Shown here piece after piece: positions 877 to 63,512 of a DNA stretch of 64,000 nucleotides. Location of the stretch: positions 23,536 through 87,535 of the IMG/VR virus record IMGVR_UViG_3300045988_125731; one strand, 5' to 3'. Below the pieces are notes generated by a model, which worked only from the letters and a program-made list of their open reading frames with translations, did no database searches and had not been told where the DNA came from. A program made the position numbers and the translations under genes. Source of the stretch: a virus. How positions within the stretch are numbered: the first letter of the stretch is position 1; every line of letters begins with the position of its first letter.

Positions 877-1845
877 GTGAAATATCCAACATCTCATAAT
901 TTACAACCTTGTAGAGAAAGAATAAATTACATTAAAAGTATTGATTCTACCGCTGAAGATAATTTAGTAGATGAAATCAAAGATAGTTTTAAAGATAGTT
1001 TATCTTATAGACAAGTTTATAAAAATGAAATACCTGAAGTGAAATATGACACGTGGATATATAATGGTAATAAACCAGACCAAATTGTTGGTTGGAAATA
1101 TTTAGTTTCCTATCCTTATGATAATGTACAATTTGAAATAGGAGATATGATTTATTGGAATTATAAAGACCACGATAGCACATATTATCCTTGGTTAATG
1201 GTTTCTTTAGATACACAACATTATTATGATGTAAAAGGGCATATTGTTCTTTGTAATAATGTATTGGAGAGATACAAAGATGGCGTGCTAGTTTGGTCTT
1301 ATCCGTGTGTCTTTAATAATAATATGAGTAGCACTGGACTTGCTCAAAGTTCTGAGGGTGTCCCACAGGCTCAGGCTAACGCAGTAGTACAGGCTAGAAG
1401 AAACGAGTTTACTTCAACTATCGACATAAATGACCGTTTTGTGTTTAATGGAGGCACTTTCCAAGTAACACAAATTAACGACCATATTGCTCCAAATTAT
1501 TTAGAGTTCTACTTTAAATACGTTCCTTCTATGGAAGAAGCCGTTGTCACACAGGAAAGTAAAGTATTAATAACACCACAAGTTCTTAATGTACCACTTA
1601 ATGTTGCACAAACATATGAGGTTTATAACTATATCAATGGTGAGAAGGCTGCTGATTCGTTTGAAATAGTTATGGATATGAGAGGACAAGACGACAGTGA
1701 TATTACTTTCGCTACTACGGACAATTCTTTCACAATTAAAACTACTCGTAAATACCCGTTACCAATTACAATTACTTGTTCAGACAAAACCACTGCTGGT
1801 GTTAAGCCAGTTACAATAACAATTACACTAGGAAATAAATGGTAG
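877..1845 (+). CDS. hypothetical phage structural protein (GTG start right after upstream stop, GGGGG RBS)
   Basis: 322-aa ORF tightly packed in the late operon. Confidence 0.45.
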   Translation: MKYPTSHNLQPCRERINYIKSIDSTAEDNLVDEIKDSFKDSLSYRQVYKNEIPEVKYDTWIYNGNKPDQIVGWKYLVSYPYDNVQFEIGDMIYWNYKDHDSTYYPWLMVSLDTQHYYDVKGHIVLCNNVLERYKDGVLVWSYPCVFNNNMSSTGLAQSSEGVPQAQANAVVQARRNEFTSTIDINDRFVFNGGTFQVTQINDHIAPNYLEFYFKYVPSMEEAVVTQESKVLITPQVLNVPLNVAQTYEVYNYINGEKAADSFEIVMDMRGQDDSDITFATTDNSFTIKTTRKYPLPITITCSDKTTAGVKPVTITITLGNKW

Positions 1846-1853
1846 GTGAGAAT

Positions 1854-2462
1854 ATGAATGATACAATTTATAACATTCCGTCTAATTTGTATAATCAATT
1901 TGCACAAGCCGAAAATATTTGCGAATGTATTGTAAATTTCTTGTTCGACAGTCCTAACGCAAAGAATTTTTGGAAACTACTCTATTATCCAAGCCGTGAT
2001 TGCTTATATAAACCTGACTTAACTGATGAACAAAAGCAATCGATGATTTGTGTCGACCCAACTATCGATGGTTCTACAGCCGAAAAGAACATAATCTTTC
2101 AAAAAGACATTGATGATGGGTTAACACTTAACATACCACAAGTGAGAATTTATACTGGAGATTTAATTCCTATTAATGATTATTCAGGAGCAATTGAAAT
2201 CCTTATGGAAATTGTTGTTCCAAATAAACTTAGTTCAGGAATTATTACAGATAAGACTCAAGTGGGAGATAGAGCTTATTTAATTGGTAGAGAGATTCAG
2301 CGTAATATTACACATACTATAATACCTGGTAGTGGAACTAACTCTAAAATCTTTATGAATAGAGAAGCTCCTGCAAGTGTAGGAAGACAGAATGGGTGGT
2401 GGAGAAATACTGCCAATAAAAACTATTCTGGCTATTTCTTATGCTTTACTGTACTTTGTTAA
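1854..2462 (+). CDS. hypothetical protein (start refined to ATG after AGGTGA; track start is 1839)
   Basis: ATG at 1839 lies inside the upstream stop region. AGGTGAGAAT ATG at 1854 is the better start. Confidence 0.4.
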   Translation: MNDTIYNIPSNLYNQFAQAENICECIVNFLFDSPNAKNFWKLLYYPSRDCLYKPDLTDEQKQSMICVDPTIDGSTAEKNIIFQKDIDDGLTLNIPQVRIYTGDLIPINDYSGAIEILMEIVVPNKLSSGIITDKTQVGDRAYLIGREIQRNITHTIIPGSGTNSKIFMNREAPASVGRQNGWWRNTANKNYSGYFLCFTVLC

Positions 2463-2486
2463 TAATAAAGGAAAGGGTATTATAGA

Positions 2487-3392
2487 ATGCTTGATATTAT
2501 AGAAACACCTGAATACAAAGACTTTGTACAAGTTGCACAATATTTCTACGGAACTAAAGAATATTATAGTTTTTTCTATGCTAATAACTATCCAGTTGCT
2601 TATATGAAACAAACAGGTATAAAGACAATTGAAGAAGATGATGGTGTAGGAGGAACTAGGCAGGTACAAGTTCCAGAGTTTAAAACTTATTATATTTATC
2701 CAATTCCTATAAGTCTATATGAGGTCTTAGGTGGACTTATACCAATGGTGCTAAATCTTGACGAAGAGAAAATGCAAGGGAGCAATCCTGAAACTATCAA
2801 AATGTCATATTTAGATTTTCTATTGTATAAGACTATTAAAGACAATAATCAAACTTTATTCTTCTTATTATGGGAAGTTCTTAGTCAATGTTTACATTTG
2901 GCAAAAGATAAGATTGATATGAATACAGACGATAGTGGGAAACTGCATTTTTATTTAGATGATGTAGAAATTGAACCTGAAGAGTTTGACGAAATAAGAA
3001 ATATAATTCTTGAACAGAATAATATTGAAAAGGTAGATTTATCTATCCACCCTTCAATTCGTCAAAAACTTAAAGAGGTTGAGGAATTTAAGCGTTCGCA
3101 TAACAAGAATAAGATGTGTTCGTTTGAAGACCTAAAGTATCGAATTATGGCAAAAACTGGCATTTCTTTTGAAGAAATAAATAAGATGAGCATAAGACAA
3201 TTCACTAAGTTATTAGAGAGTTGTGAAGTTCTATCTAATTATGAATTAGAGATGATATTATCTCCTAACCTAGAAAAGAAAGACCAGCAAAACATAAAAC
3301 ATTGGCTTTCAGATATTTCTAAGAGCAAGAAAGAAACTATTGAAGAGAATAGTATCGAGTTTGAAGAAATGAAAGCTAAATTATCAATATAG
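2487..3392 (+). CDS. acidic, helix-rich protein; possible scaffold-like protein
   Basis: AAAGGAAAGGG RBS. Glu/Lys-rich C-terminal half. Immediately precedes the major structural gene. Confidence 0.35.
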   Translation: MLDIIETPEYKDFVQVAQYFYGTKEYYSFFYANNYPVAYMKQTGIKTIEEDDGVGGTRQVQVPEFKTYYIYPIPISLYEVLGGLIPMVLNLDEEKMQGSNPETIKMSYLDFLLYKTIKDNNQTLFFLLWEVLSQCLHLAKDKIDMNTDDSGKLHFYLDDVEIEPEEFDEIRNIILEQNNIEKVDLSIHPSIRQKLKEVEEFKRSHNKNKMCSFEDLKYRIMAKTGISFEEINKMSIRQFTKLLESCEVLSNYELEMILSPNLEKKDQQNIKHWLSDISKSKKETIEENSIEFEEMKAKLSI

Positions 3393-5056: not shown

Positions 5057-5716
5057 ATGGCTAATAATTTAAGTTTAGGTATGGTCATAGCCCTAATTAA
5101 AAAATTAGGTGGAGGCGGTGGAGATATTGATAAGGCTATCGCTGATTATATTGCTGCTCATACCAATATTGCTGATGGAATTGCTGGGTTAGACGCTGCT
5201 GGGCAAGTGGCTCCTGCACAATTACCAGACCGAAACCATCAATTAGTTTTACCTTATGTTGTAGAATTAACTAGCGAAGAAATGGCAAACGCAATAGATG
5301 ACAAAACTGAAGATTATGGCACTATTGCTATTGGTCAAGTCGCAACCCCTACTACTAATGATGTATTTGTAGTAGGGCATTTATATCAATATGTATCTGA
5401 AGAAGGCGTATATAATTGGAATGATTTAAGTGATAGTTTTCAAGCAAAGAACTTATCATTTACTAATACATCAGTTGCCGCTTCTTTATTTGCTGATGAT
5501 ACAACTTATGCTGATTTAGGTTTTAGTTTTAAAGCCACAATTCCTCTTACAGGAGTTACGCAAGCAATGTATCCTATTGCTTCTTTTAGTTTAGTTGACG
5601 CTATGAGTGGAAATTATGCTCCAACAGTAGAGTCTTATAATGGCGGTATATACATTTGGGCAAAAACTAAGCCAGACACAGCCTTAGTTATACCTAGAAT
5701 AGAGGTGATTAGATAA
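5057..5716 (+). CDS. hypothetical structural-module protein
   Basis: AATAGGAGGT RBS. Gly-rich N-terminus. Confidence 0.45.
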   Translation: MANNLSLGMVIALIKKLGGGGGDIDKAIADYIAAHTNIADGIAGLDAAGQVAPAQLPDRNHQLVLPYVVELTSEEMANAIDDKTEDYGTIAIGQVATPTTNDVFVVGHLYQYVSEEGVYNWNDLSDSFQAKNLSFTNTSVAASLFADDTTYADLGFSFKATIPLTGVTQAMYPIASFSLVDAMSGNYAPTVESYNGGIYIWAKTKPDTALVIPRIEVIR

Positions 5717-6471
5717 TGGCAGTCGGAATTACTAATTGTTTAGTAGGAAGTAGTGAAAATACATTAAAGAATTTATTAGATGCTACACAAAGTTGTTATT
5801 ATTTATTTCGTAACTATAAAGGAACTTCTATTGATGATTTGATTACTTATAATGACACAAGTAATGTTACTAATATGTCTAATATGTTTAATAAGTGTTC
5901 TAGTTTAACTACAATACCACAATTAGACACTAGTAAAGTTACTGATATGTCTTCTATGTTTTATGATTGTAACTCATTAACTTCTATACCTTTATTAGAC
6001 ACTAGTAAAGTTACTAATATGTCTTATATGTTTGGATATTGTAGTAAGTTATCAAGTATCCCTTTATTAAATACTAGTAATGTTACTAATATATCTTCTA
6101 TGTTTTATGCTTGTAAGTCATTAACTTCTATACCTTTATTAGACACTAGTAAAGTTACTTTTATATCTGGTATATTTAGTGGTTGTAGTCAGTTAACTAC
6201 CGTTCCTGCATTAGATGTTAGTCATAGCAATAATCTGAATAGTATATTTAGTGGTTGTACTTCTCTTAAATCTATTTTAATGACGGGAATGAAAGTATCG
6301 TTTGACATTTCTGCTTCTACCCAATTTGAAACAGATGACATAGTAACTATTTTAAATAATCTTGCTACTATTACAACTCCACAAACACTAACAATGGGTG
6401 CTACAAATCTTGCTAAGTTATCAGACGAACAAAAGAAAATAGCAACCGATAAAGGCTGGACTCTAGCCTAA
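5716..6471 (+). CDS. DUF285 / 26-residue-repeat (BspA-like LRR) surface-repeat protein
   Basis: Six tandem 24-aa repeats of type DTSKVTNMSYMFxxCSSLTSIPLL. GAGGTGA RBS. ATG overlaps the upstream stop. Confidence 0.6.
   Translation: MAVGITNCLVGSSENTLKNLLDATQSCYYLFRNYKGTSIDDLITYNDTSNVTNMSNMFNKCSSLTTIPQLDTSKVTDMSSMFYDCNSLTSIPLLDTSKVTNMSYMFGYCSKLSSIPLLNTSNVTNISSMFYACKSLTSIPLLDTSKVTFISGIFSGCSQLTTVPALDVSHSNNLNSIFSGCTSLKSILMTGMKVSFDISASTQFETDDIVTILNNLATITTPQTLTMGATNLAKLSDEQKKIATDKGWTLA
5854..6285 (+). repeat. coding tandem repeat, 72-bp period x6 (inside the DUF285-like gene)
   Basis: e.g. ttaacttctatacctttattagacactagtaaagttact... recurs with 72-nt spacing. Confidence 0.6.
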
Positions 6472-9241: not shown

Positions 9242-9336
9242 CTAACCTATTTTATTCTTTAAACTGCTTTTTATTTTGCAATTTAAGGCTTAAAAATAGG
9301 CTATTTTTGAAGTTTTGAAGAAAGGATTTATAATTT

Positions 9337-25624: not shown

Positions 25625-25722
25625 CTTGCAACCAAAAAAGGTTTCAAATACAAAATGCAACTAATTTTGGTTGCAAATAAATAAAAAAAATAAAAGGGTA
25701 GTGTAAAATCTACCCTTTTTTA
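25625..25722. terminator. convergent-operon terminator region: 12-bp IR (TTGCAACCAAAA/TTTTGGTTGCAA) plus bidirectional hairpin AAAGGGTAG...CTACCCTTTTTT
   Basis: Sits between the last plus-strand gene and the first minus-strand gene. A-run and T-run flank the stem. Confidence 0.55.
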
Positions 25723-26988: not shown

Positions 26989-27036
26989 TAAGTAATTCCT
27001 CCTTCTCTATATTATATGCTGTTGATAAAATAAAAA

Positions 27037-27366
27037 TCAATCATCATTAGAAGATAGGATAATTTTCTTTTTATAACTATACTTGCTATTACTAAGAGGC
27101 GTTGCCCACACCGATAATTCAAAAGCATTAGTAGGAGTAATTGCGATACGATAATATTCATTTGAGTTATCTAAATAAGGAATTTTATCATAATTATCTT
27201 TTATCCATTGAATAATTTTTGGTAATATTTCCTCATACATTTGATGGTCTTTATCTCGTATCCACCAGCTATAGTAAACTACAAATTCAAGTAAATCAGT
27301 ATTATATTGTGGTCTAAAATCATTGTTGCCTGGAATAATTAAATAAGTATTTACTGCTCTTTTCAT
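27037..27366 (-). CDS. hypothetical protein
   Basis: AGGAGAAGAGAAA ATG. Preceded by the conserved leader element. Confidence 0.45.
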   Translation of the reverse strand: MKRAVNTYLIIPGNNDFRPQYNTDLLEFVVYYSWWIRDKDHQMYEEILPKIIQWIKDNYDKIPYLDNSNEYYRIAITPTNAFELSVWATPLSNSKYSYKKKIILSSNDD

Positions 27367-27533
27367 ATTTTCTCTTCTCCTATTCTTTAAAATCTAAGGC
27401 TAAAATAAGGGGTAAAATTGAACGTTTTGTCTCTATTTGCATACCCCTTAATAACTTATAAGGGAAGTATTCAAAATGCAGAAATACCCCCTAAATAAGT
27501 CTTAAAATTGAAAATATAACACTAAAAACACTT
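27367..27533 (-). promoter_or_regulatory. conserved 5' leader element copy 1 (TTATTTAGGGGGTATTTCT box + AAGGGGTA...TACCCCTT hairpin)
   Basis: Near-identical box and hairpin architecture recurs at 57767..57900. Confidence 0.4.
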
Positions 27534-29888
27534 TTATTCCTCATATAAAGAATAAGTATATTCATCATCATTAGAAGAACTATTCTTTAAGTCTGCGTTA
27601 AGGTCATAATATCCACTTAACATTTCAGATAATAGTGTTTGTTTAGTAGAAACTTTTGTTGTAGCAATAGCAGTTTCTAATGCTCTTTTTTCAGCACAAA
27701 GAATACATTTCTTTTTTGCTCTTGTAATGGCAGTGTATACCCATTGTCTACATAGTAAAGTATAAGCAGAATAATTTACACCTACTATAACAGTATCGGT
27801 TTCACTACCTTGGAACTTATGACAAGTAATTGCATAAGCAAGTTGAAGACTACCTAACATTTTATCTTCATAAATAACTTCTCCAACTTTATCATAGTTC
27901 ATAGAAAAATCTACAACTAAGGTACGCTCTAAACGATTGATTTCTTTGATAATACCAATATATCCATTGTAAACATCAACTTTATCACCATTAGTATTTA
28001 AGCAGTTATAAGAATTAACAATATTAATTACTTTGTCTCCAACTCTAAAACACTTATCATTCTTTAATGGTAAAGTATTTAAACTCGAACATTTACTTTC
28101 TGGATTGTAGTAGTTTTGTATCATAGTATTTAAAGAGCTTACACTGATAGAACCCCTATCACGCATCGGCACAATAATTTGAAGTTTATTTATGTCTTGT
28201 AATCTTTCATAGTTTTCTTTAAATGCTTCAAAAATTGCTTGTTCTGTATGTGCATTATTAATTCTAAGTTCAAAATCTTCTAATTCTCCCCTAATATAAG
28301 AACCACCATCTACGCAGCCATTAGTAATACTTTCTCCATTACGTACGTGGAAAGACTCAGTAATAATACCACTCTTTAAGGCTTGTCTATGAATTTTATT
28401 TAAAACTTGACAAGGAATAACTCTGCATTCCAATAAGTCTTTTAAGATGTTCAAACAACCGATGCTTTCTAATTGGTTATGGTCGCCAACCATAATAAGT
28501 TTTGCTCCAGTCGGAATGGCTTGAATTAAAGCATAAAACAATTCTCCACCAATCATAGACACTTCATCAAGAATAACAATATCAACATCTAAAGGATTTT
28601 GCTTGTTGTGTAAAAATCCACCTGTTTCAACATCTATTCCTAATAATCTGTGAATAGTAGAACCTTCTAGCCCTGTAATTTCAGTTAATCTAGAAGCGGC
28701 TCTTCCTGCTAAAGCAACTTGGGCTATTCTATAACCTTTAAATGCTCTAACTAATACTTCTACAGTAGAACTTTTACCAGTACCAGAAGCACCAGTAATT
28801 ACACCTACATTAGATTCACTAAAGATTTTTGCTCCATTGATTTGTTCATCAGTTAATTTCCAACCACGTTCTTCTTCAATTTGTCTTACGATGCTATCTA
28901 TTGTATAACCTGGGAAAATACGTCTATTGTTTCCATCTAACAAGCGTAATAATTCATTAGCAATTTTACGTTCTAGATTATAATATTTAAGTAAAAATAC
29001 TCTATTGCGTTCTTCATCAAATCTTAAAATATCATTATCAGTTAATTGCGTAATAGCGTCGCCAAATGATTGCATTATAGTATCTTTATGGGAGTTGATA
29101 TATTCTGAATCAAATAGTTTAAGAACGCCTGCTGTTATAACATCTGGAGTAAGCCACGAGTTACCGACTTGAGCCTGCTCTTCTAAGTAATAACAGATAA
29201 ATCCTGCAATTCTTTGTGGACTGTCAAAAGCAATGCCAACTTTCATTCCAATTTCATCTGCTTTAGCCCAACCAATACCTTTAATATCTCTAATTAGTTG
29301 ATAAGGATTTTCTTCTAATATCTTAGATATTTTATCAAGGTTGCGATAACGTTTTAAAAGTTTATCGATAATAGATACACTTAGATTGTATTGACCTAAT
29401 TTAGAATATGCCATTTCATATTGCTTATTTTCTTCGTATTTTTGAATTATTCTTTGAGCAGTAACAGTTTTTATACCTTTTACTTCACATAAAGCGTCTA
29501 TATCTTTTTCTTTAATAACTTTTAATGGGTCGCTCAAGGTATTATATAATGCTTCAACTTGTCTTTCTGATAGGATATAAGATAAAAATTGTCGTGTAGA
29601 ATAATCATTTTCACTAGCAAGAGAAGGTTGCATATATATAATCTGATATTGTAATCCATAAGTAGGGTGTTCCACAATATTTGCCATTAACGAAAAGTAC
29701 GTTTTGGCGTCAGTATGCATATCTATTTTAGGCAATTCACCAACAACTGATATAGAATTACCACTCTTAACATCTACACACGCTAAAGTTCCCCACGTAC
29801 CCTCTGAAACTCTTTGTCCAGATGGGTATTTTATTCTTGAAACCTGTACGGTAATTTGTACAGACTTTTTAATATTAGATTTTTCCAT
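27534..29888 (-). CDS. RecD-like SF1 DNA helicase (ATP-dependent exoDNase alpha-subunit family)
   Basis: Walker A GASGTGKS, Walker B ILDEVSM, motif III VGDHNQLESIG. 784 aa. Confidence 0.8.
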   Translation of the reverse strand: MEKSNIKKSVQITVQVSRIKYPSGQRVSEGTWGTLACVDVKSGNSISVVGELPKIDMHTDAKTYFSLMANIVEHPTYGLQYQIIYMQPSLASENDYSTRQFLSYILSERQVEALYNTLSDPLKVIKEKDIDALCEVKGIKTVTAQRIIQKYEENKQYEMAYSKLGQYNLSVSIIDKLLKRYRNLDKISKILEENPYQLIRDIKGIGWAKADEIGMKVGIAFDSPQRIAGFICYYLEEQAQVGNSWLTPDVITAGVLKLFDSEYINSHKDTIMQSFGDAITQLTDNDILRFDEERNRVFLLKYYNLERKIANELLRLLDGNNRRIFPGYTIDSIVRQIEEERGWKLTDEQINGAKIFSESNVGVITGASGTGKSSTVEVLVRAFKGYRIAQVALAGRAASRLTEITGLEGSTIHRLLGIDVETGGFLHNKQNPLDVDIVILDEVSMIGGELFYALIQAIPTGAKLIMVGDHNQLESIGCLNILKDLLECRVIPCQVLNKIHRQALKSGIITESFHVRNGESITNGCVDGGSYIRGELEDFELRINNAHTEQAIFEAFKENYERLQDINKLQIIVPMRDRGSISVSSLNTMIQNYYNPESKCSSLNTLPLKNDKCFRVGDKVINIVNSYNCLNTNGDKVDVYNGYIGIIKEINRLERTLVVDFSMNYDKVGEVIYEDKMLGSLQLAYAITCHKFQGSETDTVIVGVNYSAYTLLCRQWVYTAITRAKKKCILCAEKRALETAIATTKVSTKQTLLSEMLSGYYDLNADLKNSSSNDDEYTYSLYEE

Positions 29889-40109: not shown

Positions 40110-40184
40110 ATAAATTATACCTCCGTGTTATAAAGTTTCAAAAATAGGGCTATTTTAAGGCTCTATTTAAGGTTTTATTGTTTA

Positions 40185-42985: not shown

Positions 42986-43010
42986 TTTTTAAACTCCTTT
43001 CATTTTATTT

Positions 43011-43187
43011 TTATTCTTCTTGAAACGACCCATCAAGATTAAAGAAAATATTACCTACATAAAAACCTTTCTCTGTATACGCATTCAATTCTATCTCGTC
43101 TTCAGACGTATAAGTAAAATAATCGATACAGAGTTTATCAAATACTTTTTTAGTTATATCTAAGTCACTCATAATTCTCTCTTCCAT
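43011..43187 (-). CDS. possible small acidic protein (58 aa), first ORF of the leftward operon; absent from ORF track
   Basis: Uninterrupted frame with weak RBS. Confidence 0.25.
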   Translation of the reverse strand: MEERIMSDLDITKKVFDKLCIDYFTYTSEDEIELNAYTEKGFYVGNIFFNLDGSFQEE

Positions 43188-43204
43188 TATATTTATATCG
43201 TTCG

Positions 43205-43398
43205 CCTAGGGAAGGCTACAAGAAAGTTGCCGCGTAAGGATTGTAGAAAAGGTAGGCAAAATAGTCTTGTATAATTACATAAAGGAGGTGCACATATTAT
43301 TATTTATCTATCAACTTAAAGAAAGGAAATTGATTTATAAGGAGAGTGTGAGAATATAAAACACACTAAAATAACAACTTTCTTGTCACCTTCCCTAG
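43205..43398. repeat. 24-bp inverted repeat pair (43205-43229 / 43375-43398) enclosing ~145 bp with a nested AGTGTG/CACACT hairpin
   Basis: CCTAGGGAAGGCTACAAGAAAGTTG vs CAACTTTCTTGTCACCTTCCCTAG, 2 mismatches. Lies in a 550-bp noncoding gap at the head of the replication operon. Confidence 0.5.
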
Positions 43399-43539
43399 AC
43401 AAACGATATTTTTAAAATTTTCTTTTCATAATATTATATTCTTTTTATAACAATAAAATCAACTAAAATGATTTAAAAGTTAAAAATATTCTTCATATTA
43501 CAATTATTATTGTAACTGAGAGTAATAAATTAACCAAAT

Positions 43540-44238
43540 TTAGATATTATTAAAATATCTCTTTGTAATTTTTTGTAAAGCACGTTGAATGTAACGACGA
43601 ATAGTGCTATCATTGGTATGATATTTCTTTTCCATATCTCTATATGTCATTCCAGACAAATAACCTAGAAGATATTTATGTTCAAGTAAGGTTAAATAGC
43701 ATTCTCCTTCGCGAACATCTCTTAAATCTTCTATAATTAATCGAATAAGTTCTTCCCTTTCTGTTAAGGGTTGGCTAGTTGTAGAACATTGATGTACATC
43801 TATCATTTCTTCACCTATATTATCTATACTATCAAGCACTTCTTTTGATGTATCTTCTGTACGTATCTTACGACAACGATTAAGAGATGTAGTAATTGCT
43901 CTACCTCCTCTTTTTACCGCTTTTAATGCTGCTAATTCATTACGAATACAATGTTTAATAACAAGATAACACCACGTACTAAATCCTGCTTTCGTATGAT
44001 TATAAGAGTCAATTCTATTCCACATAAAAAATACTATTGTATTTACTACGTCGTCTATCATTTGATAATATTGAGGATTGTTGCGTAAAAATCCAGTAGT
44101 ATAATTATATAAAACATTTGCTAAAGCATCTTCGTCATTATGTTTTAGCCATTGAACTTCAGCAGTGGTTAATAACCCTGTTGAATAACTATTTGCCTTG
44201 TCATATATTAATTCTATTTCTTCTTGTGTAAATTCCAT
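43540..44238 (-). CDS. sigma-70 family RNA polymerase sigma factor (regions 2 and 4)
   Basis: Region-2-like GFSTWCYLVIKHCIRNELAALKAVKRG. Region-4 HTH GMTYRDMEKKYHTNDSTIRRYIQRALQKI. Confidence 0.55.
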   Translation of the reverse strand: MEFTQEEIELIYDKANSYSTGLLTTAEVQWLKHNDEDALANVLYNYTTGFLRNNPQYYQMIDDVVNTIVFFMWNRIDSYNHTKAGFSTWCYLVIKHCIRNELAALKAVKRGGRAITTSLNRCRKIRTEDTSKEVLDSIDNIGEEMIDVHQCSTTSQPLTEREELIRLIIEDLRDVREGECYLTLLEHKYLLGYLSGMTYRDMEKKYHTNDSTIRRYIQRALQKITKRYFNNI

Positions 44239-48780: not shown

Positions 48781-49090
48781 CGGCTATTTGAAAATCTTTA
48801 TCATCATCATTATCAAACTCCAATTTAAAGTAATAACCGTGAATAATGTCATTAAAGTCGGTGTCGGTATAATCAACATCAACATCTAAATGATTTATGA
48901 TTTCTTTGAGAAGAGTTAAGGCTTGAATGACATCTTTAAACACCCCAATTCGATATGAATAAAAAGGTATCATATCTTTCTTTGTAGGATTTGTGCTTCT
49001 TCTACGTTGTGCCAACTCGTATTCATCTTCATTTTTGATAGCCTCTATGTAGTCAATTAAAAAGTCTAATTTATTCATCTTCCACTCCAA
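48701..49090 (-). CDS. acidic hypothetical protein
   Basis: 129-aa ORF, Asp/Glu/Tyr-rich. Confidence 0.35.
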   Translation of the reverse strand: MEWKMNKLDFLIDYIEAIKNEDEYELAQRRRSTNPTKKDMIPFYSYRIGVFKDVIQALTLLKEIINHLDVDVDYTDTDFNDIIHGYYFKLEFDNDDDKDFQIADELYEWYENETYNDEYWREEYERNER

Positions 49091-49730
49091 AATAATATTT
49101 TTTGATACGGTCTTCGCCGATAGTTTCGATAGCCTTTTTTGCTATCTCTTCACTTGTAAAATAGATATTAAATGGGGTATAACACCACTTATATGTAGAA
49201 AAAACGGCTATAATTTTATCTGATTGAAACATACCTAAATAGTATTTTGTCTGATTAACATCATTCCAATCAATTTCTTTTTCGTTATTTTCGTATGCGA
49301 ACCTTTCTAACTCGTGAATAACTTTGAGTTTTTCGACCATAAACTTGGCTTGCTCTGCGGTTTGAAAACAATTGCCTATAGCCATTAATCTTTTATCATT
49401 TTCATACTCCCCATAGTCAAAATAATCTATATTAACATCGTGGCGAATAAAATAATAAGGTTTTCCTTTTTTAGGCTCCCACCATTTTCTTTTTTCCTCA
49501 AATATTTCCCAATCATCGGCTAAAATATTTTCTACATTTGTTAAAGATAAATCATCAATTTTAGTGTCAATTTGTTCTTTATTATAAAAGTTTGGGCTAC
49601 AACACAATAAATTCCCGTTATTGTCAATGATAAGCCATACATCTTTCCACCCTTTTCTTCTAACTTTCTTCCCTTTTGTCATTTCTTCAATTGCTTGTTC
49701 AAAATTCATTAGTTTCCTCCTCAACTTCAA
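49071..49730 (-). CDS. DUF2829-like N-terminal domain protein (paralog 1 of 3)
   Basis: N-terminal FEQAIEEMTKGKKVRRKGW. C-terminal GNCFQTAEQAKFMVEKLKVIHEL. Confidence 0.45.
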   Translation of the reverse strand: MKLRRKLMNFEQAIEEMTKGKKVRRKGWKDVWLIIDNNGNLLCCSPNFYNKEQIDTKIDDLSLTNVENILADDWEIFEEKRKWWEPKKGKPYYFIRHDVNIDYFDYGEYENDKRLMAIGNCFQTAEQAKFMVEKLKVIHELERFAYENNEKEIDWNDVNQTKYYLGMFQSDKIIAVFSTYKWCYTPFNIYFTSEEIAKKAIETIGEDRIKKYYFGVEDE

Positions 49731-50328
49731 AGTAATACTTTATAAGACGTTCTTCTCCAATGGCTTCGACAGATTTCTCTGCAATGGACTCACTTGTAAA
49801 ATAAACGTTCAATGGGATTTCTTTCATAGATATAACATAGTTAACTAATACTTGATTTGCAGAATAACTATAATACAAGAAGAACTTTTTCTGACCGTCA
49901 TCATTCCAATTTATTTCTTCTTCGTTGTTTTCAACTGCAAATGTTTTAAGTTCGTGAATAACTCTAAGTTTTTCAGCCATAAACTCGGCTTGCTCTTCGG
50001 TTTGGAAACAGTTACCAATTGATTGGAAACGCTTATCAGTATCGTCGTCATCATAAGAATAACAACCAATACGACCTGTGTGTACAATAAGATAATAATT
50101 TTCTTTTATCTTAGGTTCCCACATTTTCTTCTTCCCTTCATTAATAACTTCCCAATCATCAGCAAGTGTATTAGTAATAGTTTCTTGATTAAAATCATTT
50201 TCAATAATTTTACCTGTTTTTAATTTAATTTTTACTTTTCCATCTTCAATAAACCAATAGCCTCCCCAACCTGGTCTTCTGATTTTTTTACCATTTAACA
50301 TTTCTTGATAAGCTTGTTCAAAATTCAT
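49699..50328 (-). CDS. DUF2829-like N-terminal domain protein (paralog 2 of 3)
   Basis: MNFEQAYQEMLNGKKIRRPGW. GNCFQTEEQAEFMAEKLRVIHEL. Confidence 0.45.
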   Translation of the reverse strand: MNFEQAYQEMLNGKKIRRPGWGGYWFIEDGKVKIKLKTGKIIENDFNQETITNTLADDWEVINEGKKKMWEPKIKENYYLIVHTGRIGCYSYDDDDTDKRFQSIGNCFQTEEQAEFMAEKLRVIHELKTFAVENNEEEINWNDDGQKKFFLYYSYSANQVLVNYVISMKEIPLNVYFTSESIAEKSVEAIGEERLIKYYFEVEEETNEF

Positions 50329-55405: not shown

Positions 55406-56332
55406 CTAATTTAATTTTAAATTTAAATTAAAGTTATATTTATTAATTCCTTCACTTAATACTTCCCCTCTAATATGAGTATAAATATTAGCAGTAGTAG
55501 ATAGTTGTGCGTGTCCTAATTGGAGTTGCACTTCTTTTAAGCTTGCTCCTTTTTCTAGTTGAATAGATGCAAAACTGTGTCTAAAACTATGTGGGTGAAT
55601 ATTTTTATCAATTCCCACACGACGTGCAATAACCTTACTACTATTTGTTATAGCAACTCTATTCATTGGTTTACCACTATTAGAGATAAACAAGTTATTA
55701 TATTGACAATTAGGGAACTTTTTATTTCTAAACTTAACAATATATTCTTTAATAATTTGTGCTGTATAACTAGGAATATATTTCTTTTGCATTTTTTGTC
55801 CTTTACAACGTACTAAGATATATGGACTTTCAACATCTAAAAATAAATTATCTAATTCCATATTGATTAATTCACTTAATCTTACTCCCATTGTAAGAAA
55901 AACTGTAAACACAGCTTTATCACGTAAGTTTTTACAACCCAATATAAATCTTTGTGCTTCTTCTTCTGTAAGATAAGTTGTTTCGCGATAATCTTTATCT
56001 TTAAAAGAGTGTATTCTTTTCCAAGGATTTTTATCTATATATTCATATTCTTCTAAAAAGTGATAAAAAGATTTTAAACACATAATTTTTTGATTTTTAC
56101 TAGATACTTTATATTGCTTTTCTTGTAAGTAGTCTAAGTAAGATAAGATATTTTCGTTGTTTAATTCTATAATTTGTTTATTTGTTGTAATATCTAACAC
56201 CTCACAAAACTTATTTAGTATTTGTGTGTAGTCAGATATTGTTTTTTCTGTTCTTTGTTTTTCAATTTTACAATATCTATAAAAAGTATCTAACAAAGTA
56301 AAATCTTCTAGTTTAAAATTCTTATCAAGCAT
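55406..56332 (-). CDS. tyrosine site-specific recombinase (XerC/XerD-like integrase/resolvase)
   Basis: HPHSFRHSFA and LGHAQLSTTANIYTHI match the R-H-R-Y catalytic motifs. 308 aa. Confidence 0.75.
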   Translation of the reverse strand: MLDKNFKLEDFTLLDTFYRYCKIEKQRTEKTISDYTQILNKFCEVLDITTNKQIIELNNENILSYLDYLQEKQYKVSSKNQKIMCLKSFYHFLEEYEYIDKNPWKRIHSFKDKDYRETTYLTEEEAQRFILGCKNLRDKAVFTVFLTMGVRLSELINMELDNLFLDVESPYILVRCKGQKMQKKYIPSYTAQIIKEYIVKFRNKKFPNCQYNNLFISNSGKPMNRVAITNSSKVIARRVGIDKNIHPHSFRHSFASIQLEKGASLKEVQLQLGHAQLSTTANIYTHIRGEVLSEGINKYNFNLNLKLN

Positions 56333-57211: not shown

Positions 57212-57766
57212 TTAGTATATCCATTTTGGATTAACTATTTTACCACTAATATAATCTTCCCATATTTGTTTGTATTGTTGTAATTCTTTATTAAGTACGA
57301 GATTTAACATTTGCTTAGACAATTGATAATGATATTTTTCTTTAATTTCTCGAACAGGTATGTTTTTACTAAATCTATCAATAAACATAGGTGTTGCAAT
57401 AGTTAAAATATAATCAACAAACATATCTTTTTCAGAGTTTCTCATAGGTTGTTCCCATTCTGTATCAAAAGTATCATCAAAATTATCAACAATACAGACT
57501 CTATCTTTCCCATTTCGTTTAATTCTACGTACATCACGATAGAGACCATACATTGCTTTGGTTGAAACAGTCCAAATAAAAGTAGTTATTTTGGTAAGGT
57601 TCTGTGTATATTTATCTAAGTTATCCCACACTTTCATATATGCGATGTTAATCAAATCACTATATTCATAGCCATAAGGCTCAAAACTAGGTATGAAAGG
57701 TTGAACGGCTTTAACTACTACCCCTTTATACTCTTCTAGTAATTGTTCTTTTAATTCTCTTTCCAT
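57212..57766 (-). CDS. putative second sigma-70-family-like protein
   Basis: Region-2-like LINIAYMKVWDNLDKY...TTFIWTVSTKAMYGLYRDVRR. Helical C-terminus. Weaker match than 43540..44238. Confidence 0.35.
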   Translation of the reverse strand: MERELKEQLLEEYKGVVVKAVQPFIPSFEPYGYEYSDLINIAYMKVWDNLDKYTQNLTKITTFIWTVSTKAMYGLYRDVRRIKRNGKDRVCIVDNFDDTFDTEWEQPMRNSEKDMFVDYILTIATPMFIDRFSKNIPVREIKEKYHYQLSKQMLNLVLNKELQQYKQIWEDYISGKIVNPKWIY

Positions 57767-57900
57767 TTGTTCCTCCTGAGGCGATTTTAAGGGGTATTTT
57801 TAAAAGGTTTACCCCTACCCTTTATAGTTTATCACTTTTTATTCAAAAGTTTAGAAATACCCCCTAAATAAGGTTTAAAATAGATTTTAAATACAATTTT
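57767..57900 (-). promoter_or_regulatory. conserved 5' leader element copy 2 (CTTATTTAGGGGGTATTTCT box + AGGGGTA...TACCCCT hairpin)
   Basis: Same box and hairpin directly upstream of the RBS as copy 1 at 27367..27533. Confidence 0.4.
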
Positions 57901-58010
57901 ATGACCAATATTTTAAACCTTATTTAATTTAATCACTTACTCTAACATATAATTGCTTACTTTAGTGTCTTTTTTATGTGATAAATTTAGAGTATCATTA
58001 ATTTCTTTTT

Positions 58011-58062
58011 TACACTATAACATAAAATTAATTAGTTTTAATTTAAAACTTTTTCTAAACAA
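58011..58062 (-). promoter_or_regulatory. degenerate copy of the repeated promoter element
   Basis: TACACTATAACATAAAATTAATTAGTTTTAATTTAAAACTTTTTCTAAAC vs consensus TACACTAATATTATATCA...TTTTAAAAACTTTTTGCTTTTTATGTA. Confidence 0.3.
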
Positions 58063-58898: not shown

Positions 58899-59477
58899 TT
58901 ATCTAACTCCAAAATAATATTTTTTCAAACGTTCTTCGCCAATAGCTTTGATAGATTTATCTGCAATTTCCTTACTTGTAAAATAAACAGCAAGTGGGAT
59001 ATGTTGACATTTGGAATAAGAATCACAACTTACGATAGACATATCTGTGTAATCAAAATATAAATAGTATTTTCTTTGTTCCGAATTATTCCAATCTATT
59101 TCTTCTTCATTATTTTCAAACGCAAACTTTTCTAACTCGTGAATAACTCTAAGTTTTTCAGTCATAAACTCTGCTTGTTTTTCGGTTTGAAAACAATTAC
59201 CTAGAGATAGAAAACGCTTGTCGATATCGTCGTCGTCATAAGGATTACAACTAATATGACCTGCACCGCTAATACAATAATAATTTCCTCTTATCTCAGG
59301 TTCCCACCATTTTTTCTTTTTTTTCTTTTCTTCCACAATTTCCCAGTCTTCAGCAGTAAGACTTTCTTTCCCTAAGACTGTAATGTTATTGATATTAATC
59401 CAACTTCCTTCTTTCCAACTTTTTCTTCTAATTTTCTTTCCATTAAGGAATTCTTCGTAAATATCTTTAAGTTTCAT
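58899..59477 (-). CDS. DUF2829-like N-terminal domain protein (paralog 3 of 3)
   Basis: IYEEFLNGKKIRRKSW. GNCFQTEKQAEFMTEKLRVIHEL. Confidence 0.45.
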   Translation of the reverse strand: MKLKDIYEEFLNGKKIRRKSWKEGSWININNITVLGKESLTAEDWEIVEEKKKKKKWWEPEIRGNYYCISGAGHISCNPYDDDDIDKRFLSLGNCFQTEKQAEFMTEKLRVIHELEKFAFENNEEEIDWNNSEQRKYYLYFDYTDMSIVSCDSYSKCQHIPLAVYFTSKEIADKSIKAIGEERLKKYYFGVR

Positions 59478-59990: not shown

Positions 59991-60019
59991 TTCAAATACC
60001 TCCTATGTAGTAATTATCT

Positions 60020-60080
60020 TTACACTAATATTATATCACACTTTTTGCATTTTTAAAAACTTTTTGCTTTTTATGTATAA
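60020..60080 (-). promoter_or_regulatory. repeated promoter element copy A (extended -10 TGaTATAAT + conserved upstream box)
   Basis: Minus-strand reading: TACATAAAAAGCAAAAAGTTTTTAAAA...GTGTGATATAATATTAGTGTA. Confidence 0.5.
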
Positions 60081-60131
60081 CCATATTTACATATATACAT
60101 AAAACCATAAATACATAAATATGTATATTTA

Positions 60132-60428
60132 TTAATAAATAGTTAAAACATAAAATCCATTTTTACGCTCTACATAGAATTGACTTTGAGGGTCATTGAA
60201 AGCTACCCAACGCATATACTCCCATATACTATTAATTTGTAATACAGCCATTACTTTTATATCGTTGTTGTCAATTAATAAATCACTACCACAAGTATTA
60301 ACAAACGCTTTAAAGCAAGTATCTAAATCTTTACTAATAAAAATTGTGTTATCTTCGTTTGTAAAATAATCTTTCTTATCTATTGGTGTTTCAAAAATTA
60401 ATGTTGTATTGTTTTGTTTTTTATTCAT
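60132..60428 (-). CDS. hypothetical protein
   Basis: 98-aa ORF. Confidence 0.4.
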   Translation of the reverse strand: MNKKQNNTTLIFETPIDKKDYFTNEDNTIFISKDLDTCFKAFVNTCGSDLLIDNNDIKVMAVLQINSIWEYMRWVAFNDPQSQFYVERKNGFYVLTIY

Positions 60429-60477
60429 AATTTATTCCTTTCTTTTAAGTCCGTGGACTGTTTTTCATTACACTAAT

Positions 60478-60530
60478 ATTATACCACAAAAATTAATTTT
60501 TAAAAACTTTTTGCTTTTTATGTATGTATG
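60478..60530 (-). promoter_or_regulatory. repeated promoter element copy B
   Basis: TACACTAATATTATACCACA...TTTTAAAAACTTTTTGCTTTTTATGTA. Confidence 0.45.
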
Positions 60531-60606
60531 GTTGTAAATAAAACCATATTTATGTATATATGTATCTTCCTTATTATATATAATATATATAAGCAAAAAT
60601 AAATAA

Positions 60607-60640
60607 AAAATAAAAGACCACTATTTGATAGTGGTCAATA
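60607..60640 (-). terminator. rho-independent terminator (GACCACTAT...ATAGTGGTC + U-run on minus strand)
   Basis: 9-bp stem. TTTTATTTTTT on the minus strand after it. Confidence 0.55.
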
Positions 60641-61010
60641 AAAGAAAGGTTTTATATTTCATAGGAAAGTTATATATCTTTCCATTAACTGAAATGCTTT
60701 TTCCAAACAAATCAAAGTATGCAATATCTATTTTGTTTGTTTGTTCTACTGTTAAAAGGTCTAAAAACTCTTTAACATTATTTAAGACTTTATCATTACC
60801 GATGTTTAATTGAGTAAAAATAAAATCTCTTTCATTTGCTAAAAGGTTGTCTAACTCTTGTTCTGAAATCCCATTAGGATATTTTTGATTTAAAAGTTTT
60901 TCAAACTCTTCTACTTTGTTTTCTTCTATAATAATACATTGAGTGTCAATTGCATTAACGCTCCAAGGCTCAAAATCACTAAAATTAATATTTGCTTTAA
61001 TAGTTATCAT
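60621..61010 (-). CDS. hypothetical protein (N-terminus homologous to 61007..61246)
   Basis: FEPWSVNAIDTQCIIIEENKVEEFEKLLNQKYPNGISEQELDNLL. Confidence 0.4.
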   Translation of the reverse strand: MITIKANINFSDFEPWSVNAIDTQCIIIEENKVEEFEKLLNQKYPNGISEQELDNLLANERDFIFTQLNIGNDKVLNNVKEFLDLLTVEQTNKIDIAYFDLFGKSISVNGKIYNFPMKYKTFLLLTTIK

Positions 61011-61246
61011 ATTGTATCTTCTTCCTCATTATCTTCTTCTGTTATTCCTAAACATTCATAAATCCATTTTTCTTCAAATCTTAATAAATCATTCAATCCT
61101 GTTTCTGTTATTCCTTCGGGATAGCATTCTTCAATAAGGACATTAAACTCTTTTTCTTTTCCTTTTTTGATAATTAGGTCTTTAGTCTCGATTGCACCCG
61201 CCCACGGTTCAAACTCTTCTAGTGTAATTTCTCTAAATACTTTCAT
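61007..61246 (-). CDS. hypothetical protein (paralog of N-terminal part of 60621..61010)
   Basis: FEPWAGAIETKDLIIKKGKEKEFNVLIEECYPEGITETGLNDLL. Confidence 0.4.
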   Translation of the reverse strand: MKVFREITLEEFEPWAGAIETKDLIIKKGKEKEFNVLIEECYPEGITETGLNDLLRFEEKWIYECLGITEEDNEEEDTI

Positions 61247-61254
61247 ATTTTCAC

Positions 61255-61554
61255 CTATTTTTGACTTTCTTCTTTTAACATTGTTATTGCTTTTTCAATT
61301 CCAATTTTTTTTGCATAAGATAACAATTCTTCAAATTGGTTAAAAGTTCCGCGAAAACGATTTTCGCCATAACAACTATTAGAAGTTTCAGTTGTTTCAA
61401 TTTCTATCATAAGTTTGTCTTGCTCGTTATAATACATTCTTGTTATAATTGAGCCATTATAACTTTGAGTTGATGTTGTAATGTATTTACTACCCCTTCT
61501 TGTTGCTAATGTGCGAGATAAATCCGCATTAATTGTTGCATAAAAACTTGCCAT
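61255..61554 (-). CDS. hypothetical protein
   Basis: AAAAGGAGAAAG RBS, downstream of promoter copy C. Confidence 0.4.
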   Translation of the reverse strand: MASFYATINADLSRTLATRRGSKYITTSTQSYNGSIITRMYYNEQDKLMIEIETTETSNSCYGENRFRGTFNQFEELLSYAKKIGIEKAITMLKEESQK

Positions 61555-61595
61555 ATTTTTCTTTCTCCTTTTAAAGTGCAGTGCACTATTTATTT

Positions 61596-61660
61596 ACACT
61601 AATATTATATCATACTTTTAAAGGTTTTTAAAACTTTTTGCTTTTTATGTAAATGTTTAT
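61596..61660 (-). promoter_or_regulatory. repeated promoter element copy C
   Basis: Minus strand: ...AGTATGATATAATATTAGTGTAAATAAATAGTGCACTGCACTTTAAAAGGAGAAAG ATG. Extended -10 plus 5' hairpin plus RBS. Confidence 0.5.
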
Positions 61661-61703
61661 TTATGTATAAAATTAATACTTTGAAAGTAAAAGTTTTGTT
61701 ATA

Positions 61704-61733
61704 AATAAAAAAAAGAAGGATTAAATCCTTCTA
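61704..61733 (-). terminator. rho-independent terminator (GAAGGATT/AATCCTTC + U8) overlapping the stop codon of 61731..62504
   Basis: Perfect 8-bp stem. TTTTTTTT on the minus strand. Confidence 0.6.
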
Positions 61734-62504
61734 GTTTTTTTCTATTACACCAATTTTTTTAATCATATTTTTTAATTCTTCTTCTTTTTCACTATCTGTA
61801 ACTTGTTTTTTCATATTACAAGGCATTAACATTGCTATTGCATTTTCATTCTTTGTAAATACAACGGGTTTTACTCTACCAAATGTATAATCTTCTATAT
61901 CATAAGGTGTATAAGGTTTATATGCTTCTGCTTGACCTATTGTAATTTTATCACGGTTGCTTAAACCTAGAATTGTTAATACGTTTTCTAATTCTTCAAT
62001 AGAAACATATGTTAATTCTTTAATATTTGCTACATCTCTGTCTCCTGTAAAATTAAATGCTACAATTTGTTGATTATTGCTTTTTGCAAGTGCTATTGTG
62101 TGATAAATAGATTCTACTAATACATCATATGTACAACCTAATTCGGAATTTCGTTTTTCTTTAAAAATAGAATCACAAGGCGGATATTTTTCTTTGTCGT
62201 CTCTCTCTTCTAACCCTTGAATGATTTCATTTGCTGCAAAAAAGAACGCTGTAAAGCGATTAGTAAAAACTTGCATTCTTTTATTATCTAACATTTGATA
62301 ATCGCATTTAGATAGAATTGAATATGTTGTTTTTGAATTCTTCTTTAAATATCTTTTAATAGCTGTTAAACGCTTTTTGGAAGTATTTAAATTAAGTGCT
62401 TCTAAAGATAGATTATAATCTATTTCTTGTAAATACATTTTTAATCCCTCATAGTTTTCTGTGTTTAGATAATCTCTAATTTTGTTTAATTCTTGTTTAT
62501 TCAT
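61731..62504 (-). CDS. hypothetical protein
   Basis: 257-aa ORF bounded by promoter copy D and its own terminator. Confidence 0.4.
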   Translation of the reverse strand: MNKQELNKIRDYLNTENYEGLKMYLQEIDYNLSLEALNLNTSKKRLTAIKRYLKKNSKTTYSILSKCDYQMLDNKRMQVFTNRFTAFFFAANEIIQGLEERDDKEKYPPCDSIFKEKRNSELGCTYDVLVESIYHTIALAKSNNQQIVAFNFTGDRDVANIKELTYVSIEELENVLTILGLSNRDKITIGQAEAYKPYTPYDIEDYTFGRVKPVVFTKNENAIAMLMPCNMKKQVTDSEKEEELKNMIKKIGVIEKN

Positions 62505-62542
62505 TTTTTTCTTCCTTTCTTTAAAGTCCTTAGGACTATTTT

Positions 62543-62610
62543 TATACTAATATTATATCATATTTTTAAAGGTTTTTAAAACTTTTTGCTTTTTATGTAA
62601 ATATTTATTT
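62543..62610 (-). promoter_or_regulatory. repeated promoter element copy D
   Basis: TATACTAATATTATATCATATTTTTAAAGGTTTTTAAAACTTTTTGCTTTTTATGTAAATATTTATTTATGTA. Near-identical to copy C, including the downstream TACTTTGAAAGT extension. Confidence 0.5.
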
Positions 62611-62653
62611 ATGTACAAATATAATACTTTGAAAGTCAAAGTATTGCTACAAG

Positions 62654-62683
62654 TCAAAAAAAGTACTTAAAAACTAAGTACTT
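62654..62683 (-). terminator. rho-independent terminator (palindrome AAGTACTT...AAGTACTT + U7), stop codon inside the stem
   Basis: A-run and T-run flank it, so it may act in both directions. Confidence 0.55.
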
Positions 62684-62978
62684 TTAAATTTGTTATATTT
62701 AAATATTCTTTAATTATCTTTTTACAATTATTAATTATATCTTGTGTTGTTGCTTGATGGCTTATTTCAAACTTAAAGCCATAATCTTGTAGTGCATCAA
62801 AACAAGATATGATTAATCTACTACTGTTTTTTGGATTAACACTCACATATATATCATACTCTACATCATTGTTATATAATGTTGCACTACAAGTTCTTAC
62901 AAGTGGTAAGATTTTATATGCGTTAACATCAATTGAGTGATAATTTATAATGTTATTACAAAGCATAATTTTCACCAC
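62667..62978 (-). CDS. hypothetical protein
   Basis: 103-aa ORF. Confidence 0.4.
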   Translation of the reverse strand: MVKIMLCNNIINYHSIDVNAYKILPLVRTCSATLYNNDVEYDIYVSVNPKNSSRLIISCFDALQDYGFKFEISHQATTQDIINNCKKIIKEYLNITNLKVLSF

Positions 62979-63456: not shown

Positions 63457-63492
63457 TTTTTCTTTCTTCCTTTCTTTTTTTTGGTTTTCAAC

Positions 63493-63512
63493 CTACTAAT
63501 ATTATAGCACAA
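63493..63512 (-). promoter_or_regulatory. partial copy E of the repeated promoter core (CTACTAATATTATAGCACA)
   Basis: Matches the TACACTAATATTATATCACA core. A nearby TGTCAAG-N8-CTTGACA palindrome at 63630-63651 is a candidate operator. Confidence 0.3.

Follow-up and report, generated by a model that had tools for sequence, protein, structure and literature searches.

The stretch of viral DNA analysed here, called the window below, comprises 64,000 nt of IMG/VR record IMGVR_UViG_3300045988_125731 (positions 23,536–87,535). It is phage-like, with structural genes on the plus strand up to ~25.6 kb and a leftward, minus-strand gene block that spans 64 kb down to 25.7 kb and encodes DNA polymerase III alpha, a DnaB-like helicase, ERF, ThyX and a RecU-like resolvase. 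Two intergenic gaps on the minus strand each carry one copy of the element described in this report, a G-rich box followed at some distance by a C-rich segment with which it can pair. Copy 1 lies between a recD2-like helicase gene (27534–29888, minus strand, as are the element features and flanking genes given below; Pfam and PHROG matches) and a lineage-specific open reading frame (ORF) of 109 amino acids (27037–27366 in the ORF listing). Copy 2 precedes the gene for a 184-amino-acid protein with a Pfam Sigma70_r2 domain (sigma-184; 57212–57766). Each copy sits just 5' of a ribosome binding site (RBS) and ATG, as an earlier note on this DNA had stated: those of the 109-residue ORF are read at 27364–27381, and those of the sigma-like gene at 57764–57777, where the RBS (AGGAGG) begins 9 nt past the 3' arm of copy 2.

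The box that the earlier note had called near-identical in the two copies is an exact 20-mer, CTTATTTAGGGGGTATTTCT, present exactly twice in the window (27480–27499 and 57853–57872). We refer to the box with its upstream flank as S1, to a second G-rich segment as S2, and to the distal C-run with its flank as S3. In copy 1 the extended 5' arm of S1, ...ATTTTAAGACTTATTTAGGGGGTA, includes the shared box and occupies 27485–27518; this 34-nt arm is 71% complementary, before G-U pairs are counted, to the extended 3' arm of S3 (27381–27414; TACCCCTTATTTTAGCCTTAG...), where a U-rich stretch separates the C-run from AGCCTT, and the latter pairs with AAGACT in the 5' arm. Between the arms lies S2 (TAAGGGGTA, 27442–27450), oriented like S1 and an optional competitor for S3; the earlier proposal that it forms a hairpin with the S3 core TACCCCTTA (27406–27414) holds at the level of pairing, the two being complementary at 9/9 positions. 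The segment TTTTGAATA, 3 nt past the box (27468–27476), is weakly conserved in the relatives compared.

Copy 2 has the same layout. Its 5' arm TTTAGGGGGTATTTCTAAA (57850–57868) overlaps the box, is 19 nt long and is 89% complementary to the 3' arm TTTAAAAATACCCCTTAAA (57786–57804), a pairing found both in the minimum free energy (MFE) structure and in the RNAalifold consensus. The TACCCCT of this arm falls inside 57786–57801, and no U-tract follows. S2 (TAGGGGTA, 57810–57817) can form the hairpin with TACCCCT that had been described earlier, and TTTTGAATA recurs 4 nt past the box (57840–57848), as read from the sequence. Upstream of S1, a further segment, S0 (TAAATAAGGTTTAAAATA, 57909–57926), is a perfect 18-nt complement of the stretch just 5' of the G-run, TATTTTAAACCTTATTTA (57865–57882); an A/G variant in relatives retains U-A or U-G at the affected S0 pair.

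Chance does not explain the repeat of the element in the window. AGGGGTA is found 10 times where 2.97 are expected, with 0/100 shuffles reaching 10, and the 15-mer core with up to three mismatches has 8 matches against 2.24 expected. Profile searches of the window with S1 recovered only the two loci (E = 5e-12 and 1e-11; next best 0.37), and searches with S3 recovered only the same two (E = 0.002 and 0.025). The local GC richness previously ascribed to the element did not bear out, the gaps having 28% and 23% GC compared with 30.3% for the window; only the G and C runs stand out.

Relatives were drawn from metagenome assemblies. Homologs of the sigma-like protein at 72–96% identity gave L092–L096, RecD homologs at 98, 63, 58, 63 and 51% identity gave L091 and L097–L106, and DNA pattern scans of IMG/VR gave L043, L108, L109 and L111, the sigma homolog of the last leading to L123–L128. 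Among GenBank phages, megablast with the copy 1 locus and tblastn with the sigma protein returned no match; of the named phages Thomasclavelia phage TR-TP1 comes nearest (38% RecD identity), and in it there is no gap after the exonuclease V gene (the recD orthologue) and the element is absent. Single-protein scans of IMG/VR with the sigma protein and with the 109-residue protein gave no match. A scan of IMG/VR with the 15-mer box gave 90 loci, all attributable to chance except L043. The 11 loci that a degenerate box pattern picked up in JGI metagenomes and GTDB genomes all lacked S3 and were chance matches. With a looser pattern, IMG/VR yielded just two more loci, L130 and L131; these too are probably chance matches, even though L131 falls within an iteron region. 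As far as the searched collections show, the element is confined to a small clade of uncultivated human-gut phages.

Every relative found with RecD identity of 51–98% has a homologous element directly 3' of recD2 (recD-type copies: L091, L097, L100, L102, L103–L106, L108 and L109), and in two lineages (L092–L096; L111 with L123–L128) an element lies directly 5' of the sigma-like gene (sigma-type copies), where the gene order sigma-ORF-integrase is kept. Both copies are found on a single 92-kb contig (L108 and L111). L094 and L092 have a third copy, which is more divergent and precedes the early region, beyond the window. Between the window and L092 the 240-nt gap 5' of the sigma gene is nearly invariant, and the flanking proteins are 48% (upstream) and 72% (sigma) identical. 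The cross-lineage invariant part is S1, ATTTTAAGRCTTATTTA(R)GGGG(Y)A, in which ATTTTAAGRCTTATTTAGGGGGTA is nearly invariant across all relatives, and the S3 consensus is AAWWTTAC(C/T)C(C/T). The least conserved part is TTTTGAATA, with variants TTTTTAATC, TTTTGAACA and TTTTTGTAAG; the counterpart of the copy 1 segment is TTTTTAATC in L091 and TTTTTAAGT, TTTTTGTAAG or TTTTTATTG in remoter relatives. Conservation of the paired segments in related genomes, whose absence the earlier note had named as refuting its reading, is therefore seen for S1 and S3, and the comparison supports the view that a single functional non-coding module is present at the two window loci in homologous copies.

The genes that the earlier note had regarded as controlled by the element fare differently. 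The sigma-like gene adjoins it in both sigma-type lineages. The 109-residue gene is absent in the closest relative (L043/L091, 98% RecD identity) and is therefore not a conserved target; it looks like an inserted gene of the moron type. Because L091 lacks this gene and has a promoter, TTGATT-17-TATAAT, directly after the element, the element is tied to the end of recD and not to the 109-residue gene. A promoter-like TTGATT-18-TATAAT is found in the window at 27011–27040, at the 3' end of the 109-residue ORF, and corresponds to the site that directly follows the element in L091. IS605-type OrfB/TnpB genes were seen in relatives (L097 12441–13574; L092 16283–17416); the L097 insertion splits recD2 into pieces of 665 and 145 amino acids, and the hairpin module is kept after the second piece.

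What all 15 distinct elements share is that S1 and S3 are complementary. Because MAFFT run on full-length elements misaligned S3 of the L097 group, we counted pairs in anchored blocks of S1 and S3 (alignment A4; 15 distinct elements from about six lineages), and the counts are indicative only since A4 is anchored and the sequences are related. Standard pairs fill 118/120 cells of the eight core pairs. One core pair, at the fifth G, varies among G-C (L111, L093), G-U (window, L095) and A-U (L123, L125); elsewhere U-A becomes C-G at one pair in L100 and A-U at three flanking pairs in the L097 group. Changes on both sides of a pair account for 11 cells, compared with 5.2 ± 1.4 in shuffles (0/500 reach 11), and 78% of cells are paired versus 38–59% when the partner columns are slid by 1–3. 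The covariation for which the earlier note had suggested looking in homologous phages is thus found, and it is found for S1:S3 and not for the local S2:S3 hairpin that had been taken as the key fold.

The core cells contain 15 G-U pairs and one A-C. C-to-U changes in S3 are tolerated (TACTCT in L097/L108; TACCCT in L102/L109), and the G-run hardly changes. The C-to-U changes that retain G-U pairs, together with the 15:1 ratio of G-U to A-C, argue for folding of the sense strand and against a protein-bound DNA palindrome, a cruciform or an antisense RNA, and the same strand-asymmetric tolerance of wobble pairs disfavours the protein operator offered earlier as an alternative. The module therefore most likely acts as RNA on the gene-sense strand.

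Folding of unedited sequences points to the same helix. RNAalifold recovers it in the sigma-type set and in the set of recD-type and third copies; the latter has an additional lower helix, AAGGCU/AGCCUU, with double changes at four pairs. The S1:S3 hairpin is the MFE structure in copy 2 (z = -2.4), L111 (-5.1), L125 (-6.4), the third copy of L094 (-5.4) and L100 (-2.9). When copy 1 is folded singly, the local S2:S3 hairpin wins (z = -2.3). The helix consists of 8–9 G/C-rich core pairs, reaches ~14–25 pairs with extensions, and closes a variable insert of 45–110 nt; contiguous pairs number ~19 in L111 and L125 and ~24 in the third copy of L094. We consider it likely that S1 and S3 form an RNA helix that acts in cis.

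S2 is present in most lineages, is absent from the L111/L123/L125 lineage (sigma-type copies of L111 and L123–L128), and in L103/L104 is replaced by an inverted C-rich box, GCACCCCCTTAAAT. Of the earlier suggestion of a three-segment attenuator or riboregulator, what stands is that alternative pairings are possible in most lineages. Competition among three segments is not a defining feature, because S2 is missing in one lineage and inverted in another.

Two candidate features were considered and rejected. The base of the helix sequesters the Shine-Dalgarno sequence of the sigma gene in the MFE structure of copy 2; this is absent in the L111 lineage and is therefore not taken as a shared mechanism. 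A 20-codon ORF beginning in S2 of copy 1, examined as a leader peptide, is not conserved, L091 having ATG then TAA.

No match at gathering level was found in the whole window with Rfam 15, and E-value scans of both loci returned eukaryotic snoRNA-type noise only (best 18.6 bits against a 94-bit cut-off; E at least 0.59), so the earlier recommendation of an Rfam search yields no family. Our favoured explanation, held tentatively and with less than even confidence, is that the element is a structured cis-acting RNA that punctuates leftward transcripts, probably as a double-stranded processing or stability site. S1 (AAGRCUUAUUUAGGGGGUA: G-box with upstream flank) would form the 5' arm of a long imperfect helix and S3 (UACCCC...: distal C-run and flank) its 3' arm, and the insert between them would often contain S2, able to compete for S3. 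The module stands at fixed boundaries between gene modules, after recD2 and before the sigma-like gene, with a third copy in some relatives. Its double-stranded stalk would be a processing or stability site, most plausibly the target of an RNase III-type enzyme, and cleavage would separate upstream from downstream message and set both the 5' end of the downstream gene and the access of ribosomes to it. At the recD copy, the U-rich run past the C-run may add partial termination. Transcription across the element is presumed solely from gene orientation, and cleavage or stabilisation, like any effect on the sigma gene, is likewise presumed.

RNase III processing sites are carried by T7 (R0.3–R18.5), by the early mRNAs of Bacillus phage SP82 and by the lambda N leader. 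The SP82 sites are alike in sequence as well as in structure. Like these sites, the element occurs in several intergenic copies per genome on one strand and forms imperfect helices of ~20 bp or more with internal mismatches; as in lambda N, a key regulator gene has one of the copies in its leader. The arms of copy 1 (34 nt, 71% complementary) and copy 2 (19 nt, 89%) fall in the range of RNase III substrates, and it is in structure that the element matches an RNase III site. The helix here, unlike those sites, closes a large variable insert of 45–110 nt, and its 5' arm is far more conserved in sequence than such sites need. The likeness is one of architecture only and implies no similarity of sequence. 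For SP82, phage mRNAs have been characterised as RNase III targets in Bacillus subtilis (PMC4838370, citing Panganiban and Whiteley 1983).

Several observations weigh against this explanation. The segment ATTTTAAGRCTTATTTAGGGGGTA of the 5' arm is conserved far beyond the needs of pairing. The helices of the two window copies are modest, with z about -2.3, and L092 shows an A-C mismatch at the covarying pair. The ~six independent lineages are related, so the shuffle statistics overstate significance, and alignment A4, being anchored on the G-run and the C-run, is biased towards structure. RNase III has little sequence specificity; given the over-conserved 5' arm, a sequence-specific partner, protein or RNA polymerase, is probably also involved. 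The same over-conservation keeps alive three other readings weighed below, namely a phage-sigma promoter with a 5' stem-loop, a site like nut or put, and the binding site of an RNA-binding regulator.

An attenuator or leaky intrinsic terminator, in which S2:S3 or S1:S3 with a U-run would stop RNA polymerase and alternative pairing would set read-through, is an unlikely account of the module. The recD-type copies resemble the trp, pyr and pyrG attenuators in having a G/C-rich stem followed by a U-run, and, as in those systems, G-rich and C/U-rich segments have mutually exclusive pairings; in pyrG a poly-G tract pairs with a C/U-rich segment, of which the G-U tolerance seen here is reminiscent. 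The U-rich run past the C-run occurs in recD-type and third copies (CCCCUUAUUUU, CCCCUUUUU, CCCCGUUUUU), the third copy is laid out as A-tract, stem and U-tract, the inverted S2 of L103 can sequester S1 in a 10-bp helix in the manner of an antiterminator, and the promoter directly after the element in L091 is what would be expected past a terminator. However, all sigma-type copies lack the U-tract and have A-rich sequence past the C-run (CCCCUUAAAAUCG), so termination cannot be the shared function. A terminator scan found no canonical terminator at either copy, and the loops (13 nt for S2:S3 of copy 2, 27 nt for S2:S3 of copy 1, and 45–110 nt for S1:S3) exceed the 3–8 nt of an intrinsic terminator. 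Nor is there an antiterminator fold that excludes a terminator fold: since S1:S3 and S2:S3 use the same 3' arm in most copies, neither antiterminates the other and termination would follow from either fold; a C-rich S2 able to sequester S1 is seen in L103/L104 alone. S2 is moreover dispensable, as the L111 lineage illustrates, downstream genes are usually without a promoter of their own, and, unlike attenuators, the element has no leader peptide, ligand-binding fold or Rfam match. The missing U-tract of the sigma copy, the empty terminator scan, the competition for one 3' arm and the dispensability of S2 together make a classical attenuator unlikely as the shared function. The extent of conservation beyond pairing would also fit an RNA recognition site for a phage regulator, comparable to lambda nut or HK022 put, in which a linear conserved box and a helix would modify RNA polymerase for processive antitermination or bind a translational or stability regulator, but this reading is improbable. 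Lambda nutL/nutR and HK022 putL/putR are likewise two homologous cis-acting RNA sites, one of them upstream of a regulator gene, each with a conserved box and a hairpin. Here there are 2–3 copies per genome on one strand, one heading a ~32-kb leftward block and one preceding the early region, and a conserved stretch adjoins the conserved helix. Against this, copy 1 is near the operon end, with only five short genes before a convergent terminator at ~25690–25720; no boxA- or boxB-like sequence was seen by eye, no put-like fold or Rfam match was found, and no candidate N- or Q-like protein has been identified, although no partner protein was searched for.

The near-invariance of the ~24–30 nt that end in the G-run, more conserved than the 3' arm, is also what would be expected of a promoter for one of the two phage sigma factors of ECF/SigH type, from which transcription would start at or just before the G-run and the 5' end would pair with S3 as a protective stem-loop, copy 2 autoregulating its own gene. 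This we regard as rather unlikely. The window does encode two sigma-like proteins, the second of which (sigma-232, with regions 2 and 4) is at 43540–44238 on the minus strand, and ECF sigma factors commonly autoregulate. The third copy (L094/L092) lies in a large non-coding region without a same-strand gene upstream, S2 resembles a degenerate tandem copy of S1 (TTATWWARGGGGTA), and both T7 phi10 and autoregulated ECF promoters offer a parallel to the invariant ~24-nt block ending in a G-run upstream of a sigma gene, the G-run here being able, as in phi10-like promoters, to pair downstream. The window, however, encodes no phage RNA polymerase, and the box lacks the AAC/CGT motifs of ECF promoters. 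By eye it has no bipartite -35/-10 pattern with variable spacing and is unlike the TGnTATAAT early promoters of the phage, a sigma-70 (sigma-A) promoter scan gave no site at either box or hairpin among the sites listed, and there are only two copies per 64 kb (2–3 per genome), none upstream of the plus-strand structural (late) genes. A wider promoter-like family was also sought: TAGNNNTATTTYT, TTTGCAATT, TATTTTTGAA and RRSCTTA-N10-TATTTYTG are no commoner than in shuffles. In the L097 group the recD stop codon and the upstream part of the box overlap, recD copies would be reached by read-through transcription anyway, and covariation needs a transcribed G-run, which restricts the possible positions of a start site. 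Neither sigma-like protein had a significant match in PDB sequence searches. In a variant that we judge quite unlikely, the box would be a promoter or polymerase-modifying site of the ECF/SigH-like sigma with its start in the G-run, and S3 would read out the 5' G-tract, by a 5' stem-loop or by pairing with reiterative G residues as in pyrG, deciding transcription and translation into the sigma gene and the resolvase module; if true, such reading of the G-tract would give this uncultivated clade of gut phages a self-contained timing switch made of RNA and sigma factor. An element acting as DNA, with the inverted and direct TTATWWARGGGGTA repeats as the operator of a phage protein or as an invertible switch of the nearby tyrosine recombinase, is very improbable. 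There are three motif copies per element, in the order forward, forward, reverse (in L103 forward, reverse, reverse), L111 and L125 have arms that form a perfect inverted repeat of 16 nt, a palindrome, TTTAAAATCnATTTTAAA, lies just upstream, and in all lineages the tyrosine recombinase gene (55406–56332, minus strand, leftward block) is found two genes downstream of copy 2. But the C-to-T changes in S3 (TACTCT, TACCCT) would destroy a DNA site and yet keep G-U pairs, as the 15:1 ratio reflects. Despite the inverted repeats and the recombinase, the internal segment has one orientation in all contigs examined, the arms are 45–70 bp apart in most copies, very short for inversion by a recombinase, and copy 1 is 30 kb from the recombinase gene. 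A MITE-like or selfish repeat is likewise not indicated, since all the relatives recovered, down to 51% RecD identity, carry the element at the same two positions in conserved synteny.

Upstream of copy 2, ~140 nt from its box, the extended -10-like sequence TGTTATAGT (58014–58022, minus strand), picked out by reading, resembles the sigma-A-type early promoters of the phage and is weaker than they are; as a promoter it would put copy 2 within a leader of ~240 nt. The leader stretch at 57927–58010 (minus strand) is nearly invariant among relatives; within it TAAAGTAAGCAATTATAT and TAGAGTAAGTGATTAAAT are direct repeats of each other, and TACTCTAA / TTAGAGTA (57938–57945 with 57987–57994) form an inverted repeat. 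The L111 lineage lacks this stretch, and its element begins ~25 nt past the upstream stop codon. The early genes, one to a cassette, form a run at 59.9–63.7 kb, and every cassette has a canonical terminator and a strong sigma-A-type promoter with an extended -10. Their minus-strand gaps (59991–63700) have a common promoter module of ~60 nt, AAAAAGCAAAAAGTTTTTAAAAA...TGTGATATAATATTAGTGTAAA, with extended -10 and hairpin-plus-U terminators.

In relatives, the early genes are preceded, past the right end of the window, by a ~2-kb non-coding region (L094 1534–3781; L092 ~1000–3200; L125 772–2924). It contains repeated iterons of AAAGTTCTT type, a G+C-rich hairpin, a polypurine tract of ~90 nt and an ATACCCCCT motif, and may be an origin or packaging region; in L094 and L092 it also holds the third copy of the hairpin module (L094 ~3270–3380). 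Another structure was seen in the 554-nt minus-strand gap at 42986–43539, downstream of the second sigma-like gene, where a near-perfect long-range helix of ~36 bp (arms ~43374–43409 and 43199–43234) encloses ~140 nt with smaller hairpins. RNAfold gives -79.6 kcal/mol for this gap (z = -6.4), with no Rfam match; the helix may belong to a structured RNA not yet annotated, or be a further processing stalk. Two short hairpins with A/U stems and GGC or GCCC loops at 9282–9320 (plus strand) and 40139–40175 (minus strand), with AAGGCTTA or GAGCCTTA before and TATTTTTGAA after, resemble the flanks of the S1 box, especially that of L111; since pattern searches show no enrichment, this likeness may be coincidence. 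Elsewhere in the window, overlapping 144-nt units at 72-nt spacing (72–81% identity) make up about six tandem 72-nt repeats at 5854–6213 (plus strand), inside ORF 5716–6471. Three paralogous genes with stretches of DNA that are 64–78% identical lie at 49071–50328 and 58899–59477 (minus strand), and their counterparts in relatives give weak Tad2-like Pfam matches.

The element is best filed among the conserved intergenic RNA hairpins that punctuate phage operons, as a member of no Rfam family. The finding is not surprising in kind, since phages are known to punctuate operons with conserved hairpins. The start-associated and extended start-associated sequences of Cluster K mycobacteriophages, for instance, are G-rich intergenic motifs with paired inverted repeats, present in 10–19 copies just 5' of some gene starts. 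We know of no covariation reported for them, and the element described here differs from them in sequence, copy number and host phylum. What it adds is a previously undescribed structured non-coding module with covariation, which stands directly before a phage sigma gene and at the end of the replication operon in human-gut phages of a clade without cultured members. With a consensus structure and 15 distinct sequences from about six lineages, it is a candidate new RNA family. If it controls processing or read-through, it would be part of the circuit that times the passage from early to later expression in these phages, and would also offer a compact, portable RNA part with which that circuit could be probed.

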